From assembly GCA_937903035.1 (NCBI GenBank), contig CALCZP010000004.1:12570-76569 (forward strand): DNA of 64,000 nt, given 5' to 3'. Within the stretch, counting starts at the first letter, position 1. The number at the start of each line of letters is the position of its first letter. The stretch is from an uncultured bacterium (GTDB lineage Bacteria > Patescibacteriota > Minisyncoccia > Phycocordibacterales > UBA9973). The notes under the pieces are model-generated. The model did no database searches, was not told the origin of the DNA, and was given only the letters and a program-made list of their open reading frames with translations. Made by a program: the position numbers and the translations under genes. This document shows positions 1 to 9,383 of the stretch, in pieces.

Positions 1-221
1 TTCTCTTTAATAAGAGTAAGTAGTTGGCTTTCACTCATGTCATTTACCAAAGCGACACCTTCAGAAAGAGCACTGTCCATTTTCTTAAGAAATTCTTTAT
101 CATCTTTTCGCCAACGATAAACACTATTACGAGATAGTCCTGTTTTCTCACATGCAACTTGAACTATTGGCACCTTCCGAAGTTCATCAAGGAACTGATC
201 TTGAAATTTATTCTTTTTCAT
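1..221 (-). CDS. phBC6A51-like HTH / terminase small subunit-like protein (runs off window)
   Basis: Not in ORF track. Translated from ATG 221: MKKNKFQDQFLDELRKVPIVQVACEKTGLSRNSVYRWRKDDKEFLKKMDSAL; overlaps the methylase stop. Confidence 0.7.
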   Translation of the reverse strand, partial: MKKNKFQDQFLDELRKVPIVQVACEKTGLSRNSVYRWRKDDKEFLKKMDSALSEGVALVNDMSESQLLTLIKE

Positions 222-1485
222 AGAAGTTCTTGATTACCTGTGCTTTGCGACCAGTTAATTTTTCGTATCTGCGAATTGCCAAATCGCAGAACACAGGTTC
301 TATCTCTAGGGAATAGACCTTTCGCCCAAGTTGTTCTGCACAGATCATGGTGCTTGCGGATCCAGAGAAGGCGTCAAAAATAATGTCTCCTGGTTTGGTG
401 CAACGCATAATAAACTTATGGTGGAGTTCAGGATTTTTACTTGTTGCATGCTCCATTTGATTTGCAGGAAGTCGTTTTGTCGCCCAGATATTTGAGATAT
501 CTTCTAGAAGCTGATTGCCAGTTCCGTAGTCTTTGTTTTGTACTTCGTTGAGATTTTTTACGAGATCAGAAATATATGGAGACCCTTTTGTGCCATACAC
601 GCAATACTCGAGGCACTTATTGAACGCCACGGTAGGTGTCGGCGATGAATTGTTTTTGATCCAGACATTGAGCCGTCTATTCTTAACTTCATGCTCCATA
701 TAGAGTGTTTGAAATACCCACACCCACGCTTCATCGCACCAGAAAGCGACGTGTACGTCCTTAGTAGATACAGCTAGTGAAGACTTAAGAACTTTGCGAA
801 TAAATTCTTTGTATTCTTCAGGTGATTGGTTGTCGTCAAATGTGCCACCATAGTTGGATTTATTGCCAACCCCTTTGTCATATGAAAGTCCGATATTAAA
901 GGGTGGGTCATTATATATAGCGGTAGCTTTATCATCGCCAAATAGTTTTTTAACGGCATTTATATCGGTTGAACTAGCACATAATAATTTGTGACCACCC
1001 ATGACAATCAGATCACCAGGTTTTGTTTGTGGTGTTTTGATTTTCTTTAATTCTTTCTCAACATCGAATTTATCGTCTTTAGTATCTTTTTCTTCGTCCC
1101 AAAACTTAACCAATTCTTTTTCGTTGAATCCAGCGAACTGTAAAAGCTCTAGATCAAATGACTTGAGCTTTTCAAAATCCCATTCGCCGTCGTTAATATT
1201 GCTTTCGATCGCAATCTTGCGACGTTCTTCGTCAGTCAATTTACGATCAGGAATCAACACATTTACTTGCTTAATACCGAGCTGTATCAAAGCAGTTTTT
1301 CTTTGATTACCTGAAATAATCGTATTGTCTGTATCAATAACGATTACACTATGAAAACCACTTTGAATGATCTTCTCTTTTAATTTTTCCATAGCGACCC
1401 GTGAGATTTTTCTTGGATTTTCTTTCCAAGGGAGCAGGTCTGTGACATCTCGAACTCCTGTTGTCCATGAAGGTTTTTTATTCAT
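208..1485 (-). CDS. ParB N-terminal domain + N4/N6 DNA methyltransferase
   Basis: N-terminal ENPRKI/IISGNQR ParB-like region; NDPPF catalytic motif; HATSKN; DAFSGSAST SAM-binding motif. Confidence 0.9.
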   Translation of the reverse strand: MNKKPSWTTGVRDVTDLLPWKENPRKISRVAMEKLKEKIIQSGFHSVIVIDTDNTIISGNQRKTALIQLGIKQVNVLIPDRKLTDEERRKIAIESNINDGEWDFEKLKSFDLELLQFAGFNEKELVKFWDEEKDTKDDKFDVEKELKKIKTPQTKPGDLIVMGGHKLLCASSTDINAVKKLFGDDKATAIYNDPPFNIGLSYDKGVGNKSNYGGTFDDNQSPEEYKEFIRKVLKSSLAVSTKDVHVAFWCDEAWVWVFQTLYMEHEVKNRRLNVWIKNNSSPTPTVAFNKCLEYCVYGTKGSPYISDLVKNLNEVQNKDYGTGNQLLEDISNIWATKRLPANQMEHATSKNPELHHKFIMRCTKPGDIIFDAFSGSASTMICAEQLGRKVYSLEIEPVFCDLAIRRYEKLTGRKAQVIKNFYEKE

Positions 1486-1659: not shown

Positions 1660-2292
1660 TTATTCTTTTTCTATGTGGATTTTTGGATTGATACGATACC
1701 CAGATCCTTTCTTTCCTTGAATGAGTTTCGTCTTCTTAGGAAGTCTTAGAGTGTTTATTGCGTAATCATTAAAAGTCTGAACCATTTTTGCTACCGCTTG
1801 TGATGAGGGGCAAGAGAGTATTCTTTGTAAGTCTTTTGTTTGTATATATGCATCTCGGTCAAGTAATGTTTCAAGTAATTTCTTTCTTTTTCCATTTTCA
1901 GTAAGGTCATATGAAAATAGTTTGCCGCCTAAATGTCTATCGAGCGATCCGTTATCTCTGTCGTAGATAATCACGTTACTATCTTGGCTTGAAGATAGAA
2001 GTCGCTTGTGATTTTTATTCAACTCCTGAAGTTCTTCTAAGATGTCATATTCAACAGGGCGACGATATACTATGGCTGGATATTCTACTGGCTCAAAAAG
2101 TTTTGCTTGTTCGCGAACGCGATTCATTTGTTCAATAATTGGTTGTGCAACTTTTTTGATATTTTCAATCATTTCAGCATGTCTTTTACCAATCTCTTGA
2201 AATTGAGAAATCTGCCCCTCACTTAAAGTAGGGGGATGTATTTTTGCCACCAGTTCACCAACAGTCATTGGTTTTTTCTGCTCGTCTGCCAT
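1660..2292 (-). CDS. Hypothetical protein with C-terminal winged-helix (OmpR-like) domain
   Basis: C-terminal LIQGKKGSGYRIN wing motif; divergent from lexA. Confidence 0.6.
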   Translation of the reverse strand: MADEQKKPMTVGELVAKIHPPTLSEGQISQFQEIGKRHAEMIENIKKVAQPIIEQMNRVREQAKLFEPVEYPAIVYRRPVEYDILEELQELNKNHKRLLSSSQDSNVIIYDRDNGSLDRHLGGKLFSYDLTENGKRKKLLETLLDRDAYIQTKDLQRILSCPSSQAVAKMVQTFNDYAINTLRLPKKTKLIQGKKGSGYRINPKIHIEKE

Positions 2293-2298
2293 GTAGTT

Positions 2299-2350
2299 AT
2301 GATAGCAAATACTTGCTTTTTTGTATAGAGTAATTTATACTATTTATACC
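2299..2350. promoter_or_regulatory. Divergent promoters with candidate LexA operator palindromes
   Basis: TTGCTT(2313)-N17-TATACT(2336) before lexA; TATCAT 6 nt before the divergent ATG; palindromes AGCAA-N4-TTGCT (2304-2317) and GTATA-N8-TATAC (2323-2340). Confidence 0.55.
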
Positions 2351-2968
2351 ATGACAAATAACCTAAGTGATAAAGATAAAAAAGCGTTTGCCCTTATCCG
2401 TAACAAGATTGTTCATTATGGCAAAAGTCCTACACTTAGTGAGATTAACGAGGTTACAGGTGGAGCTTCTCCACGATCTGCAAGCCTAGTAATTAATCGA
2501 CTAATCGATGCAGGACTTATAAAGAAAATCGGGCGACAACTTATCCTTACTGGATCACAGACAACAGCTTCAATAAGCACAGTTGATGTTCCGTTGGTTG
2601 GTGCTGTGACTTGTGGTGCTCCTGTTCTTGCCGAAGAAAATATTCAAGCACTAATTCCTGTCTCAACAGGTTTAGCAAAGAAAGGATCGAAATATTTTCT
2701 TTTGCGTGCTATGGGTGACTCGATGAATCTTGCGGGTATTAATAGTGGAGATCTGCTTTTGATTCGACAGCAAGATACAGCAGAAGATAATGAAAAAGTT
2801 GTTGCTCTTATAAATGACGAAGCAACCGTCAAAGTGTTCAAGAAAGCGAATGGTGCCGTTGTACTTCAACCGAAATCAACAAACAAAAACCACAAGCCGA
2901 TTATATTAACAGATAACTGCATCATACAAGGAGTAGTCGTTGCTGTACTTCCTGGTGATCTATATTAA
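2351..2968 (+). CDS. lexA: LexA-family repressor (S24 peptidase)
   Basis: wHTH SPTLSEI; VPLVGAVTCG-AP cleavage site; GDSM serine; TVKVF lysine; ATG 2351 follows the promoter. Confidence 0.9.
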   Translation: MTNNLSDKDKKAFALIRNKIVHYGKSPTLSEINEVTGGASPRSASLVINRLIDAGLIKKIGRQLILTGSQTTASISTVDVPLVGAVTCGAPVLAEENIQALIPVSTGLAKKGSKYFLLRAMGDSMNLAGINSGDLLLIRQQDTAEDNEKVVALINDEATVKVFKKANGAVVLQPKSTNKNHKPIILTDNCIIQGVVVAVLPGDLY

Positions 2969-2972
2969 AAAT

Positions 2973-3200
2973 ATGGCAAAAAATATTCACACTGTTTACA
3001 ACTCAGAGCGTGGGATGTGGGAAAATAAAAAAGAAGGCTCTTCTTCTCCTGTTTCTTCGCACCACACAAAAGAAAATGCTCTTGATAGAGCAGAAAATAT
3101 TGCTGAAAAAGCAAAGGTCGAACATTTTATTCATGGTAAAGACGGAAAAATCCAGGAGCGTAACAGCTATGGAAACGATCCTTTCCCACCACGGGGTTAA
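2973..3200 (+). CDS. DUF2188 domain protein
   Basis: HHTKENA...FIHGKDGKIQERNSYGNDPFPPRG, the typical DUF2188 C-terminus. Confidence 0.85.
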   Translation: MAKNIHTVYNSERGMWENKKEGSSSPVSSHHTKENALDRAENIAEKAKVEHFIHGKDGKIQERNSYGNDPFPPRG

Positions 3201-3206
3201 AACACT

Positions 3207-4130
3207 ATGGCTATTCCGCTTTCTCAACTGACAACATGGTCAAATCAGGGTGCTACTGTTTCAGCAAAAACAACACACGAATCTATTCGGACGGCACTAA
3301 CACACGATCAATCTCCACTTAAAGATCGTATCAGTAACGGCTCGGTAAAAATCTATCTCCAAGGATCGTATAAAAATGATACAAACATTCGAGCAGATAG
3401 CGATGTGGATGTAGTTGTCGAACTAACAACCACATTTGGTCATAATGCACACGAACTTCCTTATGATCAGAAAAATGCTCATGATCAGGCATACAGTAGT
3501 GCTGTTTATGATTGGCAAGATTTACGCAGAGATGTTATCTCTGCTCTGACTAAATATTACGGACTACTATCTGTTGATACAAGTGGTAATAAGTCAATTA
3601 AACTCAAACCTTCTTCAGGAAGGCTAAAGGCTGATATTGTTCCTGTTATAAATTATCGAAAATATGATTATTTTTATGGTACCACTAGCCATAATGCAGA
3701 AGAGGGTGTGAAGTTTTATCATCGCACAACAAATCGCGGAATTATAAATTATCCAGAGCACCACTATCAAAATGGAGTTAATAAAAATTCAGATACTCGT
3801 ACAGGTGGGCGTTTTAAACCAACAGTACGAATTTTCAAGAATATGAGAAACCATCTTGTTGATACAGGTAAACTTGCCGACGGTGTAGCACCATCATATT
3901 TCTTGCAGTCATTAGTTTATAATGTCCCTGATGAGCACTTCAATGGTGATAATTCCACAACCGTGCACGCCGTATTAAAACATCTCTGGTCTGCATTACC
4001 TTTGGGACAATGTGTGTGTCAAAACCATTTTCATGAATTATTTGGTGAAAGCGAGGAGCAATGGAATCAAGATGATGCGGTAAAAACTATTAGTGCTTTT
4101 GTAGAGCTTTGGGATAACTGGAATCAATAA
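3207..4130 (+). CDS. cdnE: CBASS cyclic dinucleotide synthase, CdnE-like CD-NTase
   Basis: QGSYKNDTNIRADSDVDVVV, ADIVP, IINYPEHHYQNG, APSYFLQSLVYNVPD; colinear with Rhodothermus marinus CdnE as recalled. Confidence 0.92.
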   Translation: MAIPLSQLTTWSNQGATVSAKTTHESIRTALTHDQSPLKDRISNGSVKIYLQGSYKNDTNIRADSDVDVVVELTTTFGHNAHELPYDQKNAHDQAYSSAVYDWQDLRRDVISALTKYYGLLSVDTSGNKSIKLKPSSGRLKADIVPVINYRKYDYFYGTTSHNAEEGVKFYHRTTNRGIINYPEHHYQNGVNKNSDTRTGGRFKPTVRIFKNMRNHLVDTGKLADGVAPSYFLQSLVYNVPDEHFNGDNSTTVHAVLKHLWSALPLGQCVCQNHFHELFGESEEQWNQDDAVKTISAFVELWDNWNQ

Positions 4131-4132
4131 TT

Positions 4133-4732
4133 ATGCAAAATATACACCCATATTCAATAAATTCTGAAGAACACAAGTATGTATCGCTCTACCTTGCGGT
4201 ATTATCCATATTACTTGCTTGGGGTTTATATCTTTTCTCAAAAAATGTCTTTGTGCTTCCGTGGTGGATTGAGGCTCCTTCGGTGATTGGTTTTTACGGA
4301 ATTTTACATAAGTGGTTCGAGACTAAGTTATGGAGAAATAATTTTATTCGTAAAATTACTAGTATAAAAACTCCTATCGTAGATGGAAATTGGTCTGGAA
4401 CCATAACATCTCATTCAAATCATGCTAACGGTCCAATACAGATTAAGAAATTTTGTATTAAACAAACGTGGACTCATCTACTTATTTATCTAGAAACAGA
4501 AACATCCGAATCTTTCAGTTTTGAGGCATCAATGAATGTTGATGAGTTTGGAACGGCTCGAATACATTATCAATACAGAAACAAACCAAAAGATAATGCT
4601 CCCGAAAGTATGCACATACATGAAGGATCAGCATCTGCAAAACTAGAAGATGAAGGAACGCTTCAAACAGAGTATTACTCAGGTAGAGATCGTAACAATA
4701 CAGGCTCTTTTGAAGTTAAAAAGTTACAATAG
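4133..4732 (+). CDS. cap15: CBASS effector Cap15 (2TM + beta-barrel)
   Basis: Two N-terminal TM helices, then P-x-V-D-G-x-W-x-G, IKQTWT and MHIHEG in a beta-rich domain; 2 nt downstream of the CD-NTase. Confidence 0.88.
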   Translation: MQNIHPYSINSEEHKYVSLYLAVLSILLAWGLYLFSKNVFVLPWWIEAPSVIGFYGILHKWFETKLWRNNFIRKITSIKTPIVDGNWSGTITSHSNHANGPIQIKKFCIKQTWTHLLIYLETETSESFSFEASMNVDEFGTARIHYQYRNKPKDNAPESMHIHEGSASAKLEDEGTLQTEYYSGRDRNNTGSFEVKKLQ

Positions 4733-4781
4733 ATTGTAACTTTTATAGTCAATCCTGTGTCACTTTTGTCACTTTTTATCA

Positions 4782-4912
4782 CTCGACAAGGGTCGATCTG
4801 ATATAATTAGAAAAGCTAAAAAAGCTTTGTGGTGCAATGAATCCCAAGGTCGCACCACGACTAGGCTCACAAAGCAAAAAGCGCTTCGCAAGAGGCGCTT
4901 TTTGCTTTGTGA
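4782..4912 (+). repeat. Copy A of ~130-bp unit (site-74 bp-site-hairpin)
   Basis: CTCGACAAGGGTCG at 4782, CACGACTAGGCTCACAAA at 4856, then a long GCAA-loop hairpin; same layout as 6471-6601. Confidence 0.65.
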
Positions 4913-5056
4913 TTTTTTCAGCATATATGTTGAAAAAAGAATCGAACCGGGAAAGGGTCGGGAAACGGGAGTTTCCCGTGGAGGAAGGCAGGCGAAGCCG
5001 TTGGAAAACCGTGGGTTTCCAAAGTGTGAGATAATGAAATGTCCCCGTAGGGTCAC
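4863..5056 (+). other. Highly structured tRNA-associated palindromic element
   Basis: Serial hairpins (GCAA, GGGA and GAA loops), inverted tRNA T-arm GAATCGAACC, terminal tRNA-Glu-like 3' end. Confidence 0.55.
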
Positions 5057-5095: not shown

Positions 5096-5785
5096 ATGAA
5101 AAGACAAAACAACATACAAGCACAAATTAAAAGAGCCTCAGAAATTTTACCGAAAATCGAACAAGAATATAATAACTCTCTACACAAAAAAGAAGTTAGT
5201 GACGATTTAAAATTGGATATTCAAACTTTTTTAGGACACTTAAGATCTGCCTTAGATTACTTATCAAAGGATATAATTGAAAAATATTGTCCTAATGTAG
5301 ATAAATCATATTTCCCAATTAGGCATGACAAAAATTCTTTTATGAAAATGATGTCCGAATCTTATCCGGAGCTTATTTCACATTCTCCTGCTCTATACTC
5401 ATATCTGGAATCAATACAGCCATATACTAATTCGGATAACTCATGGCTAGCTCATTTCAATAAACTTAATAATGAAAACAAACATAACGATTTAGTTGAA
5501 CAAATACGAACAGAAACCGAGAGGGTTAATGTGGAGATTAATGGGGGTGGTAGTGTAAATTGGGACCCTTCGGCAGTTAGATTTAGTGGACCAGGTGTTT
5601 ATATAGGAGGAGTTCCTGTGGATTTTAATACTCAAATACCAGTACAATCAAATACTCAAACTGTAACTATCCAAACATGGATTGATTTCAAATTTAGTGA
5701 TATTGAAACTTCTGCCCTTCACTTACTAAAAGAGTCACTAAGCAAAATAAAAGATATAAACACTGAGATTGTTAAATTTCTATAA
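5096..5785 (+). CDS. Hypothetical protein, HEPN-like helical fold suspected
   Basis: LRSALDYL...YFPI...LNNENKH motif pattern; AT-rich cargo gene. Confidence 0.6.
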   Translation: MKRQNNIQAQIKRASEILPKIEQEYNNSLHKKEVSDDLKLDIQTFLGHLRSALDYLSKDIIEKYCPNVDKSYFPIRHDKNSFMKMMSESYPELISHSPALYSYLESIQPYTNSDNSWLAHFNKLNNENKHNDLVEQIRTETERVNVEINGGGSVNWDPSAVRFSGPGVYIGGVPVDFNTQIPVQSNTQTVTIQTWIDFKFSDIETSALHLLKESLSKIKDINTEIVKFL

Positions 5786-5802
5786 TTATTGGAAATAATA
5801 TT

Positions 5803-6468
5803 ATGATTGGCGCAATATTAAAACTTTCATATAACCAAATTGGAGAAAATACTATTATTGGGGGTATATGTGGGACGTGTTTTGCTATTGATAGACATAG
5901 GTTACTAACAGCTGAACATATTATTTCTAAAAATAGTTTTACACCGGACAATGGCTTTGAGAAAGTGCGGTACTGGGCATTACTTGAGTCTGGTCAAAAT
6001 ATTGAGATATATAAAAATAACATAGAAAGTAAAAGAGAAAAAGATCTTAGTATTATAAAAACATCTAAATGGATAAATGGTAAAGTTCTAAAAGTAATAA
6101 ATTCTGAGACAAATATTAACTCAACATGTGGGAATTATGGATACACAGCAAGAACAATGCCTGACATAGATGGTGCTTGGAGTAAAAGAAAATTCAATAT
6201 TAAGTTCCATTCTTTACAAGAAAACAGAATTCATTCAAGCGGTTATGTTAAATCAATAAAAAATGCAGAAGTTAATACTAATGATTTAAATTTAAAATCA
6301 AGAATCCTAGAACTTAGTTATGGCGGTCGAGAAGGTATGTCGGGCGGCTGTTTACAAAATGAAAATAATGAAATAATTGGTTTGATGTCATTTGGGTTAC
6401 CTCCAGATCAAGCAGTAAAAAATATTCTATTCGCAGTTGATATAAGAGAAATTATAAATTATTTATAG
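5803..6468 (+). CDS. Trypsin-like serine protease, no signal peptide
   Basis: GTCFAI..LLTAEH (His), DLSII (Asp), GMSGG (Ser). Confidence 0.85.
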   Translation: MIGAILKLSYNQIGENTIIGGICGTCFAIDRHRLLTAEHIISKNSFTPDNGFEKVRYWALLESGQNIEIYKNNIESKREKDLSIIKTSKWINGKVLKVINSETNINSTCGNYGYTARTMPDIDGAWSKRKFNIKFHSLQENRIHSSGYVKSIKNAEVNTNDLNLKSRILELSYGGREGMSGGCLQNENNEIIGLMSFGLPPDQAVKNILFAVDIREIINYL

Positions 6469-6470
6469 CG

Positions 6471-6601
6471 CTCGAGAAGGGTCGAAGTGCAATACTAAAA
6501 AGCACCAGTAAACCTTACGGGGTAAAGTAACACTTGGTTCTATCTCGAGAAGGCTCACAAATACAAAACACCTCTTACGAGGTGTTTTGTATTTGTGAGC
6601 C
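6471..6601 (+). repeat. Copy B of ~130-bp unit (site-73 bp-site-hairpin)
   Basis: CTCGAGAAGGGTCG at 6471, CTCGAGAAGGCTCACAAA at 6544, perfect hairpin GGCTCACAAATACAAAACACCTC-TTAC-GAGGTGTTTTGTATTTGTGAGCC. Confidence 0.65.
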
Positions 6602-8366: not shown

Positions 8367-9383
8367 TTATAATGCTTTTTCGATTTCAATAAGCTTTTTA
8401 ACTCCATTGTAGAGCTGCTCATAAATCTCACGCTCAGTCACTCCTAAGCGACGTTTATTTGAGATATCATAGATACCATCTGATGATTCAGAATGTTCTC
8501 CATGTACACCACGGATTGATAATCCGAGTGTGCCACAAATTGCTTTGAAATTTTGACTGTTTGAAAACTTTGGAATCCTAATATGTACTGATGCACGCAT
8601 TGCAGTTCCAAGGTTTGTCGGACAAGTCGTGTGATACCCACGAAGATCATCAAATGCAAAGTTGATTTTCTCATTGATAAAATTCAATGCTGTTGCCAAT
8701 CGGGTAAACACTTCAGCGATGTCAGCTCCTGGCTGCATACTTATGATACGCATACTGTCTTCTTCTGAAACCCAGACAAGGAATTTCTTGTCGTCAGAAA
8801 AGAAAATTCCACGATTCTTTGGCCAATCACGATTTACACCGGCACTTTCCAAGAAACGGTCGCCTTGCTTGAACAAAAAATGATCCTCAACCATTTTGGC
8901 ACGAACTTCTTCGCTCATACCATCAAGTGGAAAATACTCACCCTTAAGTGTTCCTGGGAGTTGTTTCAATGCTTCAATAATTTCGGATTCCATAGCAGCA
9001 CGATCTTCTGCTGAGATAGCAGAAGGAAAAGCATACTTTGCAAAATTACGACCAACACGAATACGGGTTGATACAACATAATTACCTTCAGGGTCTAAGT
9101 TTTCAACAGGAAGACCGGTGAGTGAGAAATCACTCTTATGCCCGCTCATATCATAATTATGATACTCCTTGATAACAGGATCAAAAAGAGAGGCAAGTAT
9201 AGTATACGATTCAGGATCTCCTGCATATACACCAATACTGGAGTCCTGGTTATCAATACCAGACTGAATTGCCTTTTGAAGAGTCCAGCCATGTGGTGTA
9301 ACAGCAGTAGCTAGCTGTTCTTGTACTTGTTCAGTACAATGCTTTTTCATTAACATGTCAGGGTTTTGTGTGTTTTTTGTCAT
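8367..9383 (-). CDS. Arginine kinase (ATP:guanido phosphotransferase with N-terminal domain)
   Basis: SGIDNQDSSIGVYAGDPESY, STRIRVGRN, FKQGDRFL, SEED, TCPTNLGT, RGVHGEHS, DISNKRRLG. Confidence 0.92.
   Translation of the reverse strand: MTKNTQNPDMLMKKHCTEQVQEQLATAVTPHGWTLQKAIQSGIDNQDSSIGVYAGDPESYTILASLFDPVIKEYHNYDMSGHKSDFSLTGLPVENLDPEGNYVVSTRIRVGRNFAKYAFPSAISAEDRAAMESEIIEALKQLPGTLKGEYFPLDGMSEEVRAKMVEDHFLFKQGDRFLESAGVNRDWPKNRGIFFSDDKKFLVWVSEEDSMRIISMQPGADIAEVFTRLATALNFINEKINFAFDDLRGYHTTCPTNLGTAMRASVHIRIPKFSNSQNFKAICGTLGLSIRGVHGEHSESSDGIYDISNKRRLGVTEREIYEQLYNGVKKLIEIEKAL

Follow-up and report, generated by a model that had tools for sequence, protein, structure and literature searches.

A swappable defence slot behind a LexA-type repressor gene on a probable mobile island of an uncultured Patescibacteriota bacterium

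A defence slot led by a LexA-type repressor gene

The window analysed here is a 64,000-nucleotide stretch of contig CALCZP010000004.1 (positions 12,570 to 76,569, forward strand; assembly GCA_937903035.1) from an uncultured bacterium of the Patescibacteriota, with a genome of candidate phyla radiation (CPR) type comprising 645 kb in 8 contigs (98.7% complete). Near its start, a gene for a LexA-type repressor leads an antiphage signalling system based on cyclic oligonucleotides (CBASS). Comparison with related loci displays that the DNA directly after the lexA stop codon is a swappable defence slot, of which CBASS is one filling among several. We modestly favour a mechanism in which the LexA of the surrounding island represses its own slot transcript together with a divergently transcribed gene, and in which RecA-driven cleavage raises both. 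Coordinates are window positions unless a contig (C4, C8) or a locus number (L) is given.

The four open reading frames (ORFs) in question all lie on the plus strand, with intergenic gaps of 4, 6 and 2 nt:

2351-2968, plus strand: lexA, 205 amino acids (aa); winged helix-turn-helix (wHTH) and S24 peptidase, the island's LexA-type repressor
2973-3200, plus strand: DUF2188 small protein, 75 aa; PADLOC candidate PDC-S16, optional lead gene of the slot
3207-4130, plus strand: cGAS/DncV-like nucleotidyltransferase (CD-NTase) of the CdnE clade, 307 aa
4133-4732, plus strand: Cap15 effector, 199 aa; two transmembrane (TM) helices and a cyclic-dinucleotide receptor barrel

The original prediction, which had read the run as a candidate SOS-inducible CBASS operon, holds with regard to co-orientation, gap lengths and gene identities. 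The ORF coordinates agree with it, as do the matches in Pfam, NCBIfam and PADLOC; Peptidase_S24, DUF2188, Cap15_TM and Cap15_CD_rec each exceed their own Pfam cut-off. The order lexA-DUF2188-CdnE-Cap15 recurs in 7 of the 35 distinct lexA-selected loci described below (one of them, L012, is probably the same strain), and the arrangement is therefore beyond chance. We infer that all four genes stand behind one promoter.

Census of the slot

The lexA query returned 79 metagenome loci, of which 48 rows were kept (lexA identity of 64% or more, a match extending to residue 200, and 300 nt or more of downstream DNA). Removal of one partial and 7 duplicate rows leaves 40, and removal of the window and of 4 cyclase-selected loci leaves 35 distinct loci, the cargo of which was labelled by BLAST to scanned representatives. 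Among 401 genomes of the class, 9 match lexA at E<=1e-30, with two others at 73-75% identity.

The slots of these 35 loci hold CBASS (13), TIR/Thoeris-like systems (9), the pyrimidine cyclase system Pycsar (2) and other cargo (11). The CBASS group comprises 11 CdnE-type systems (one cut inside cdnE) and 2 others, one of HORMA type and one of 1TM type. Macro-domain, caspase, 8xMP and PDC-M50 forms make up the TIR/Thoeris-like group, two members of which are shortened by contig ends, and the remaining cargoes are a metallo-beta-lactamase (MBL)-fold gene with a TM partner (5), an unknown 303-320-aa gene (3), Ymh/HEPN (2) and a PDC-M36A-like system (1). Nucleotide-signalling cargo is found in 24/35 loci. 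Eight unrelated cargo types occur, every one in the same orientation, and the next ATG follows the lexA stop within 8 nt in 30 of the 35 loci. The lead gene of the slot encodes at most 92 aa in 21 loci, and in 10 of these it is DUF2188.

Cargo is not clustered on the lexA tree, since the 40 rows require 21 cargo changes versus a mean of 22.0 after shuffling, a count as low being reached in 61 of 200 shuffles. Two loci, L022 and L023, carry identical lexA and different cargo. More distant LexA proteins (38-56% identity) display a similar picture: 8 of 14 distinct loci lead straight into DUF2188 or a recognised defence gene, counted over loci with downstream DNA, fusions and partial matches being omitted. 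Of 23 sequencing runs listed, 2 RNA and 2 DNA runs were covered, every one in the form of contigs, with the RNA contigs deriving from mixed relatives; none of them bears on transcription, joint transcripts or excision. One contig of a DNA run departs from the reference just past lexA and ends loosely, which is consistent with other cargo.

The notion of a CBASS-specific architecture is not supported by this census, in which 22 of 35 loci carry other cargo. If LexA were read as a regulator dedicated to CBASS, moving along with the CBASS genes and joining CapH/CapP and CapW as a fourth analogue, support could be seen in CBASS being the commonest single cargo and in distant LexA homologues (38-56%) that lead CBASS operons, for instance at L058, L068/L069 and L077/L078. 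However, the lack of clustering on the lexA tree speaks against this reading, and a CdnE-Cap15 pair of 84% identity occurs without lexA at L010 (labelled Bacteroidota). Seen from the cyclase, the lexA island is present at 4 of 5 close loci with upstream DNA, L010 being the exception, and cyclase relatives of 96-98% identity stem from genomes labelled Nomurabacteria, Paceibacterota or Saccharibacteria. Among 400 further genomes of the phylum, 3 have a distant CdnE, none of them with lexA or DUF2188 within 1.5 kb. The gene stays with the island backbone rather than with the cyclase: of the 20 loci that have 1 kb or more of upstream DNA, 18 carry a divergent ParB-methylase gene within 1.3 kb of lexA. 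Since lexA faces this divergent wHTH/ParB-methylase/terminase arm so regularly, it looks primarily like the repressor of the island. The census thus largely refutes a dedicated CBASS regulator, which we hold to be highly improbable.

Alternatively, the slot may be a recombination hotspot only, with cargo driven by an internal promoter and its place behind lexA devoid of regulatory meaning. Hotspots of P2 and P4 do exchange defences between core genes (PMC13586616), two genes upstream of cdnE are exchangeable as well (L005, L008, L034), and a promoter-like site (10/12 match) lies inside lexA at 2764-2791. This site was considered as an internal promoter and rejected, as no more than 5 of 47 homologues retain both its hexamers and promoter-like sites occur at chance level altogether (23 versus 22.2 expected). 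In addition, a cargo ATG within 8 nt of the lexA stop leaves no intergenic room for a promoter, and the single orientation of the cargo also argues against a mere hotspot, which we regard as very unlikely.

Several of the cargoes deserve mention in their own right. The 303-320-aa gene recurs (L008:6088-6999, L005, L018, L031, L051), takes the place of DUF2188 before cdnE in two genomes and is a candidate new defence gene; its 303-aa form has no match in Pfam, NCBIfam, PHROGs or Atlas. The pair of MBL-fold hydrolase and membrane protein (PADLOC candidate PDC-M48) fills the slot at L029, L046, L052, L092 and L093. TIR-TIR-8xMP (L013:5448-6773) and TIR-caspase-TIR-8xMP (L022:7627-9830) cargoes are Thoeris-like and have an octameric membrane protein as their effector. 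In the Pycsar cargo (L020:7590-9700; L049), two PycC-like cyclase genes flank PycTM.

The island LexA and its candidate operator

The island protein scores as LexA in NCBIfam (TIGR00498, 131.8 bits versus a cut-off of 110.95), and its match to Pfam LexA_DNA_bind (21.1 bits) is slightly under the cut-off of 23.7. In alignment with solved LexA, Cys88-Gly89 falls on the Ala-Gly cleavage site, and Ser124 and Lys161 fall on the catalytic dyad. The earlier observation of a retained Cys-Gly site and Ser/Lys dyad is thereby confirmed, and the Cys-Gly, G.SM and AT.K motifs are present in 47 of 47 LexA homologues. Members of the LexA family are self-repressing, and their self-cleavage on filaments of RecA and single-stranded DNA (ssDNA) is established. 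The genome contains a recA gene, and it also contains a second, chromosomal lexA on contig C8; hence the island lexA is not the host SOS LexA.

The region between lexA and its divergent neighbour holds the following features:

2313-2341, plus strand: candidate lexA/slot promoter; -35 TTGCTT, 17 nt, -10 TATACT, with the ATG 9 nt on
2299-2327, minus strand: candidate divergent promoter, TATACA-17-TATCAT with TG; consensus match only
2323-2349, no strand assigned: candidate operator, palindrome GTATA-N8-TATAC at 2323-2340 and a third TATAC half-site at 2345-2349
1660-2292, minus strand: divergent gene, 210 aa; coiled N-terminus and predicted OmpR/PhoB-like winged-helix C-terminal domain

The lexA promoter candidate was seen in the sequence, and the consensus promoter scan did not list it because its -35 matches in only 3 of 6 positions. 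No Shine-Dalgarno sequence precedes lexA, the transcript of which is likely leaderless. The palindrome overlaps two promoter elements, the -10 of lexA and the predicted divergent promoter's -35, the latter of which coincides with its left half-site; the left TATA (2324-2327) sits in the spacer of the lexA promoter, and the third half-site is located at the likely transcript start. For the conservation profile, 28 distinct upstream segments were lined up at the -10, so that the right half is fixed by the anchoring (L025, L079 and L048 were omitted). The left TATA is invariant in 28/28 segments and the preceding G is found in 23, while the 8-nt spacer takes 22 different forms. Only 58 bp separate the start codons of lexA and the divergent gene, which is a likely second target of the operator. 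The palindrome is kept in L050 and L051, both of which lack the divergent ParB-methylase arm. The structure model of the divergent gene product (predicted local distance difference test, pLDDT, 79) gave a best Foldseek E of 9e-3 and none at E<=0.001.

Exact GTATA-N8-TATAC sites number 3 in the 645 kb, where a hand estimate from base composition would expect about 1, and none lies within 200 nt before recA. A GAAC-N4-GTTC site, which we take to be the host-type LexA box, lies upstream of lexA on C8; the island promoter has none. As the operator type differs from that of the host and does not precede recA, the island LexA looks private, with an operator of its own.

Some further sites were noted. 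One exact operator copy lies at C4:184185, about 110 nt upstream of a gene for a 209-aa chromosomal protein, and may be there by chance. In a group of LexA proteins of about 52% identity (L055, L059-L063, L065, L066, L070), a differently spaced motif rich in ATAC/GTAT stands upstream of lexA, which suggests divergence of operators between island lineages. A GAAC-N4-GTTC within the ParB-methylase gene ahead of terS was discarded as an operator: it is kept in 3 of 22 homologous codon stretches, including copies of this genome's own locus, and with 6 such sites genome-wide it is attributed to codon chance.

The CdnE-Cap15 pair of the window

Judged by its sequence, the CdnE-Cap15 pair is an ordinary type I CBASS. 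PADLOC recognises the CD-NTase as a cyclase (E 3e-106) and Cap15 as a 2TM effector (E 4e-57); the closest solved relative of the former is Rhodothermus marinus CdnE (RmCdnE, 6E0K; E 4e-65), and the latter matches PDB 7N34 (E 2e-9). The cyclase active site is intact (G[GS]...DxD...D: Gly53-Ser54, Asp66, Asp68, Asp143). By residue count on the alignment, Asn181, Cys271 and Glu284 correspond to Asn166, Cys252 and Glu265 of RmCdnE, a set that goes with uracil as the acceptor and with a donor pocket that is open (PMC10442399). As these residues match the RmCdnE configuration, the enzyme is predicted to be a cUMP-AMP synthase; the (R/Q)xW motif of c-di-UMP makers is absent. No ancillary Cap2/Cap3 or HORMA/TRIP13 genes were recognised, for cap15 is followed by a non-coding border and a hairpin, and the next two ORFs match none of these.

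The pair resembles known type I operons of CdnE and Cap15 (RmCdnE, 6E0K; Lp/Cl/EfCdnE-Cap15, PMC10442399; Ssc-CdnE03-Cap15, PMC10686824) in clade, catalytic motifs, lid Asn, the adjoining effector with 2TM and barrel, and the lack of ancillary genes. Unlike these, it lies in an island of a CPR-type genome, where a LexA-type repressor precedes it and several other cargoes take its place in relatives. Membership in DS-2 (DefensePredictor), a system of phospholipase, cGAS and diadenylate cyclase (DAC), was considered and dismissed: NCBIfam DS2_2 reaches 295.7 bits, below the cut-off of 350, and neither a phospholipase nor a DAC gene adjoins. The DUF2188 protein is modelled with confidence (pLDDT 84), and Foldseek gives it no match at E<=0.001. 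An AcrIF5-like fold was set aside, as the best VIA Z of 5.5 (rmsd 2.8, 60 aligned) is too weak for use.

A possible mechanism and its main competitor

We hypothesize that one leaderless transcript may run from lexA through cap15, with the slot filled by a standard CdnE-Cap15 pair and the small DUF2188 gene. LexA would bind and repress at the palindrome covering its own and the divergent promoter; the overlap with the -10 is where a repressor would act. DNA damage would form RecA-ssDNA filaments and, following the precedent of the family, induce self-cleavage of LexA, whereupon slot defence would rise and the island's own genes would start together. With one private operator over both promoters, defence expression is likely coupled to island induction, and with relatives holding other defences in the slot, damage would likely raise whichever defence is loaded rather than CBASS in particular. 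By homology, phage infection would then trigger cUMP-AMP synthesis and membrane disruption by Cap15. Negative autoregulation may also hold the slot at a steady basal level that already suffices for defence, as basal expression reportedly does for CBASS under control of CapH/CapP (10.1101/2022.04.27.489752) or CapW (PMC9122588). Cargo may be exchanged by recombination between the 3' end of lexA and a conserved right border. Repression, cleavage and co-transcription are inferred.

A different outcome follows from the logic of lambda cI-rexAB: the slot may ride on the maintenance transcript of the repressor, providing steady defence while the island is quiet, so that damage would leave slot expression flat or falling; a fall would spare the induced island from its own abortive-infection cargo. 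The architecture of the slot fits this equally well. In lambda, rexAB lie just downstream of cI, and lexA here resembles lambda cI in facing a divergent gene and in its apparently leaderless transcript. In Pseudomonas putida P1, one operon holds both rexAB and the gene of a CI-like repressor, which its own promoter requires for activity (PMC12894663), and induced expression is unnecessary for anti-phage protection with CapH/CapP or CapW. On the other hand, a palindrome on the -10 with a third half-site on the likely start is the position of a repressor and not of an activator, the protein scores above the cut-off of a self-repressing family, and 58 bp leave little room for a switch of OR1-OR3 type. 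We consider the cI-rexAB logic a serious but rather unlikely alternative to damage-induced slot expression.

A number of points weigh against the proposed derepression by LexA cleavage. The autoregulation of LexA assumed by the original prediction fits the conserved palindrome over the lexA promoter, but both halves overlap promoter hexamers. The overlap that argues for a two-way switch is thus also its weakness: the right half-site is the -10 and the left one the divergent -35, and some of the conservation could stem from promoter constraint. TATA is itself AT-rich, as is the region around it, and the 28 segments are relatives of one another. Abortive-infection genes also come after the repressor, in one operon with it, in lambda and in P. 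putida P1, and the repressor of P1 acts on its own promoter as an activator, which is the opposite sign (PMC12894663). Among Escherichia coli strains, defence expression is negatively correlated with recA (preprint, 10.64898/2025.12.14.694197). Finally, chimeric joins can arise in metagenome contigs where lexA is repeated, and apparent swaps such as L022/L023 could be inflated by them.

Relation to known systems

Control of immune operons by DNA damage is published for CapH/CapP (10.1101/2022.04.27.489752), CapW (PMC9122588), CapK/CapS (PMC13373217) and DdaA. The first three share with the island as modelled here a repressor beside diverse immune operons and its release upon DNA damage; the linked operons include CBASS, type IV Thoeris and DUF2188/DUF3892 operons. 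CapH/CapP accompanies 408 of 6,233 CBASS and regulates DUF2188 and DUF3892 operons as well (10.1101/2022.04.27.489752). These regulators of abortive infection work with other sensors (a WYL domain, a kinase or a distinct metallopeptidase), whereas here a single S24 self-cleaving protein would serve. The capH and capP genes lie on the strand opposite to their operon; by contrast, lexA is the first gene of the same run, on a mobile-element backbone, and the genes upstream of the cargo are lexA (same strand), the wHTH gene and the ParB-methylase gene rather than the HTH repressor and Zn metallopeptidase of a CapH/CapP layout. The passages available of the CapH/CapP and CapK/CapS papers (10.1101/2022.04.27.489752; PMC13373217) make no mention of LexA.

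What the island shares with lambda cI-rexAB and the repressor-rexAB operon of P. putida P1 (PMC12894663) is that abortive-infection genes lie downstream of an integrated element's repressor, predicted in the island to be RecA-cleavable, which faces a divergent gene. In contrast to these, its cargo is hypervariable and rich in signalling systems, its palindrome sits on the -10, and the element carries terminase and serine-recombinase genes with no capsid gene recognised. The defence hotspots of P2 and P4 (PMC13586616) display the same fast swapping of intact defences between conserved cores, with identical cores holding different defences; they belong to another element and host group, and the slot described here is fused to a repressor gene with gaps of a few bases.

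Full-text searches of the published literature, consisting mostly of listings and the starts of abstracts, found neither a LexA-led defence slot nor such an island. Each of the parts has precedent, and so does the logic. What appears undescribed is their union on a CPR island: a LexA-type repressor that looks private, a putative two-way operator and a swappable slot rich in signalling systems. We tentatively propose, with slightly less than even confidence, that the LexA-type repressor, with an operator to itself and self-cleavage that depends on RecA, constitutes an undescribed class of immune-operon regulator, and that both the unnamed cargoes (303-320-aa gene, MBL and TM pair, TIR with 8xMP, a 752-aa membrane protein) and the small proteins at the head of the slot (DUF2188, DUF3892, DUF1508) represent new components of defence. 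As part of this joint and equally tentative claim, one switch would de-repress both an exchangeable defence of CBASS, Pycsar or Thoeris type and the packaging arm of a CPR island. If so, a switch of one gene and 58 bp leading at least 8 cargo types would be a compact RecA-dependent case, defence expression would be tied to induction of the carrier element, and the lexA stop codon would mark a slot that can be mined. Immunity in CPR bacteria is poorly characterised, and the slot offers a practical address for finding new defence systems there.

Island backbone and flanks

The remaining features of the island within the window are:

1-221, minus strand: start of the terminase small subunit gene (TerS), at the window edge
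208-1485, minus strand: ParB-like domain and N6/N4 DNA methylase, island backbone
4735-4870, no strand assigned: right border of the slot, conserved and non-coding, about 136 nt, with a TGTCACTTTT repeat near its start
4867-4920, plus strand: terminator-like hairpin of 20 bp with a T run

Past the window edge (C4:1661-12790) follow TerL, a module resembling a diversity-generating retroelement (DGR) with reverse transcriptase (RT) and Avd, type III restriction-modification genes and a large serine recombinase. The short right-border motif was detected in 26 of 48 rows. Relatives diverge past the border, which is the likely end of the island. From its gene content, we take this to be an integrated terminase/serine-recombinase island of about 16 kb that is likely mobile. 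It may be a phage satellite such as a phage-inducible chromosomal island (PICI), a type that combines an integrase, divergent regulators and a packaging gene with a lack of virion genes: serine recombinase, divergent pair, TerS and TerL are present, and no capsid family was recognised among the ORFs scanned, which were most of those of the island. Viral collections contributed one IMG/VR locus, on a contig of 33,370 nt that equals the contig of L015 in length, and one distant phage match at 37%, and none of 9 Rfam matches reached the gathering score.

The DGR-like module lies at C4:7912-10776 (L091) and consists of RT, Avd and a 302-aa gene, the C-terminus of which resembles an ORF-like stretch near C4:9126-9422, likely the template repeat. 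A second, unrelated reverse transcriptase of 439 aa (C4:326-1645, L091) is convergent on the recombinase, stands behind a 300-nt leader and has weak matches of DRT/retron type. An identical direct repeat of 55 nt is found at window 5002-5056 and at C4:1-55 (contig start); it ends with a copy of the 3' end of tRNA-Glu, the gene itself being on C8, and suggests stacked island remnants. At 5096-6468, two genes of low GC content (a 229-aa unknown and a trypsin-like peptidase) lie between short CTCGAGAAG repeats; a perfect inverted repeat of 23 bp follows at 6552-6601, similar to the hairpin at 4867-4912, and its layout with the preceding two genes is cassette-like. Further downstream, at 8367-9383, this CPR-type genome encodes an ATP:guanido phosphotransferase including the N-terminal domain, the layout of a eukaryote-type arginine kinase.

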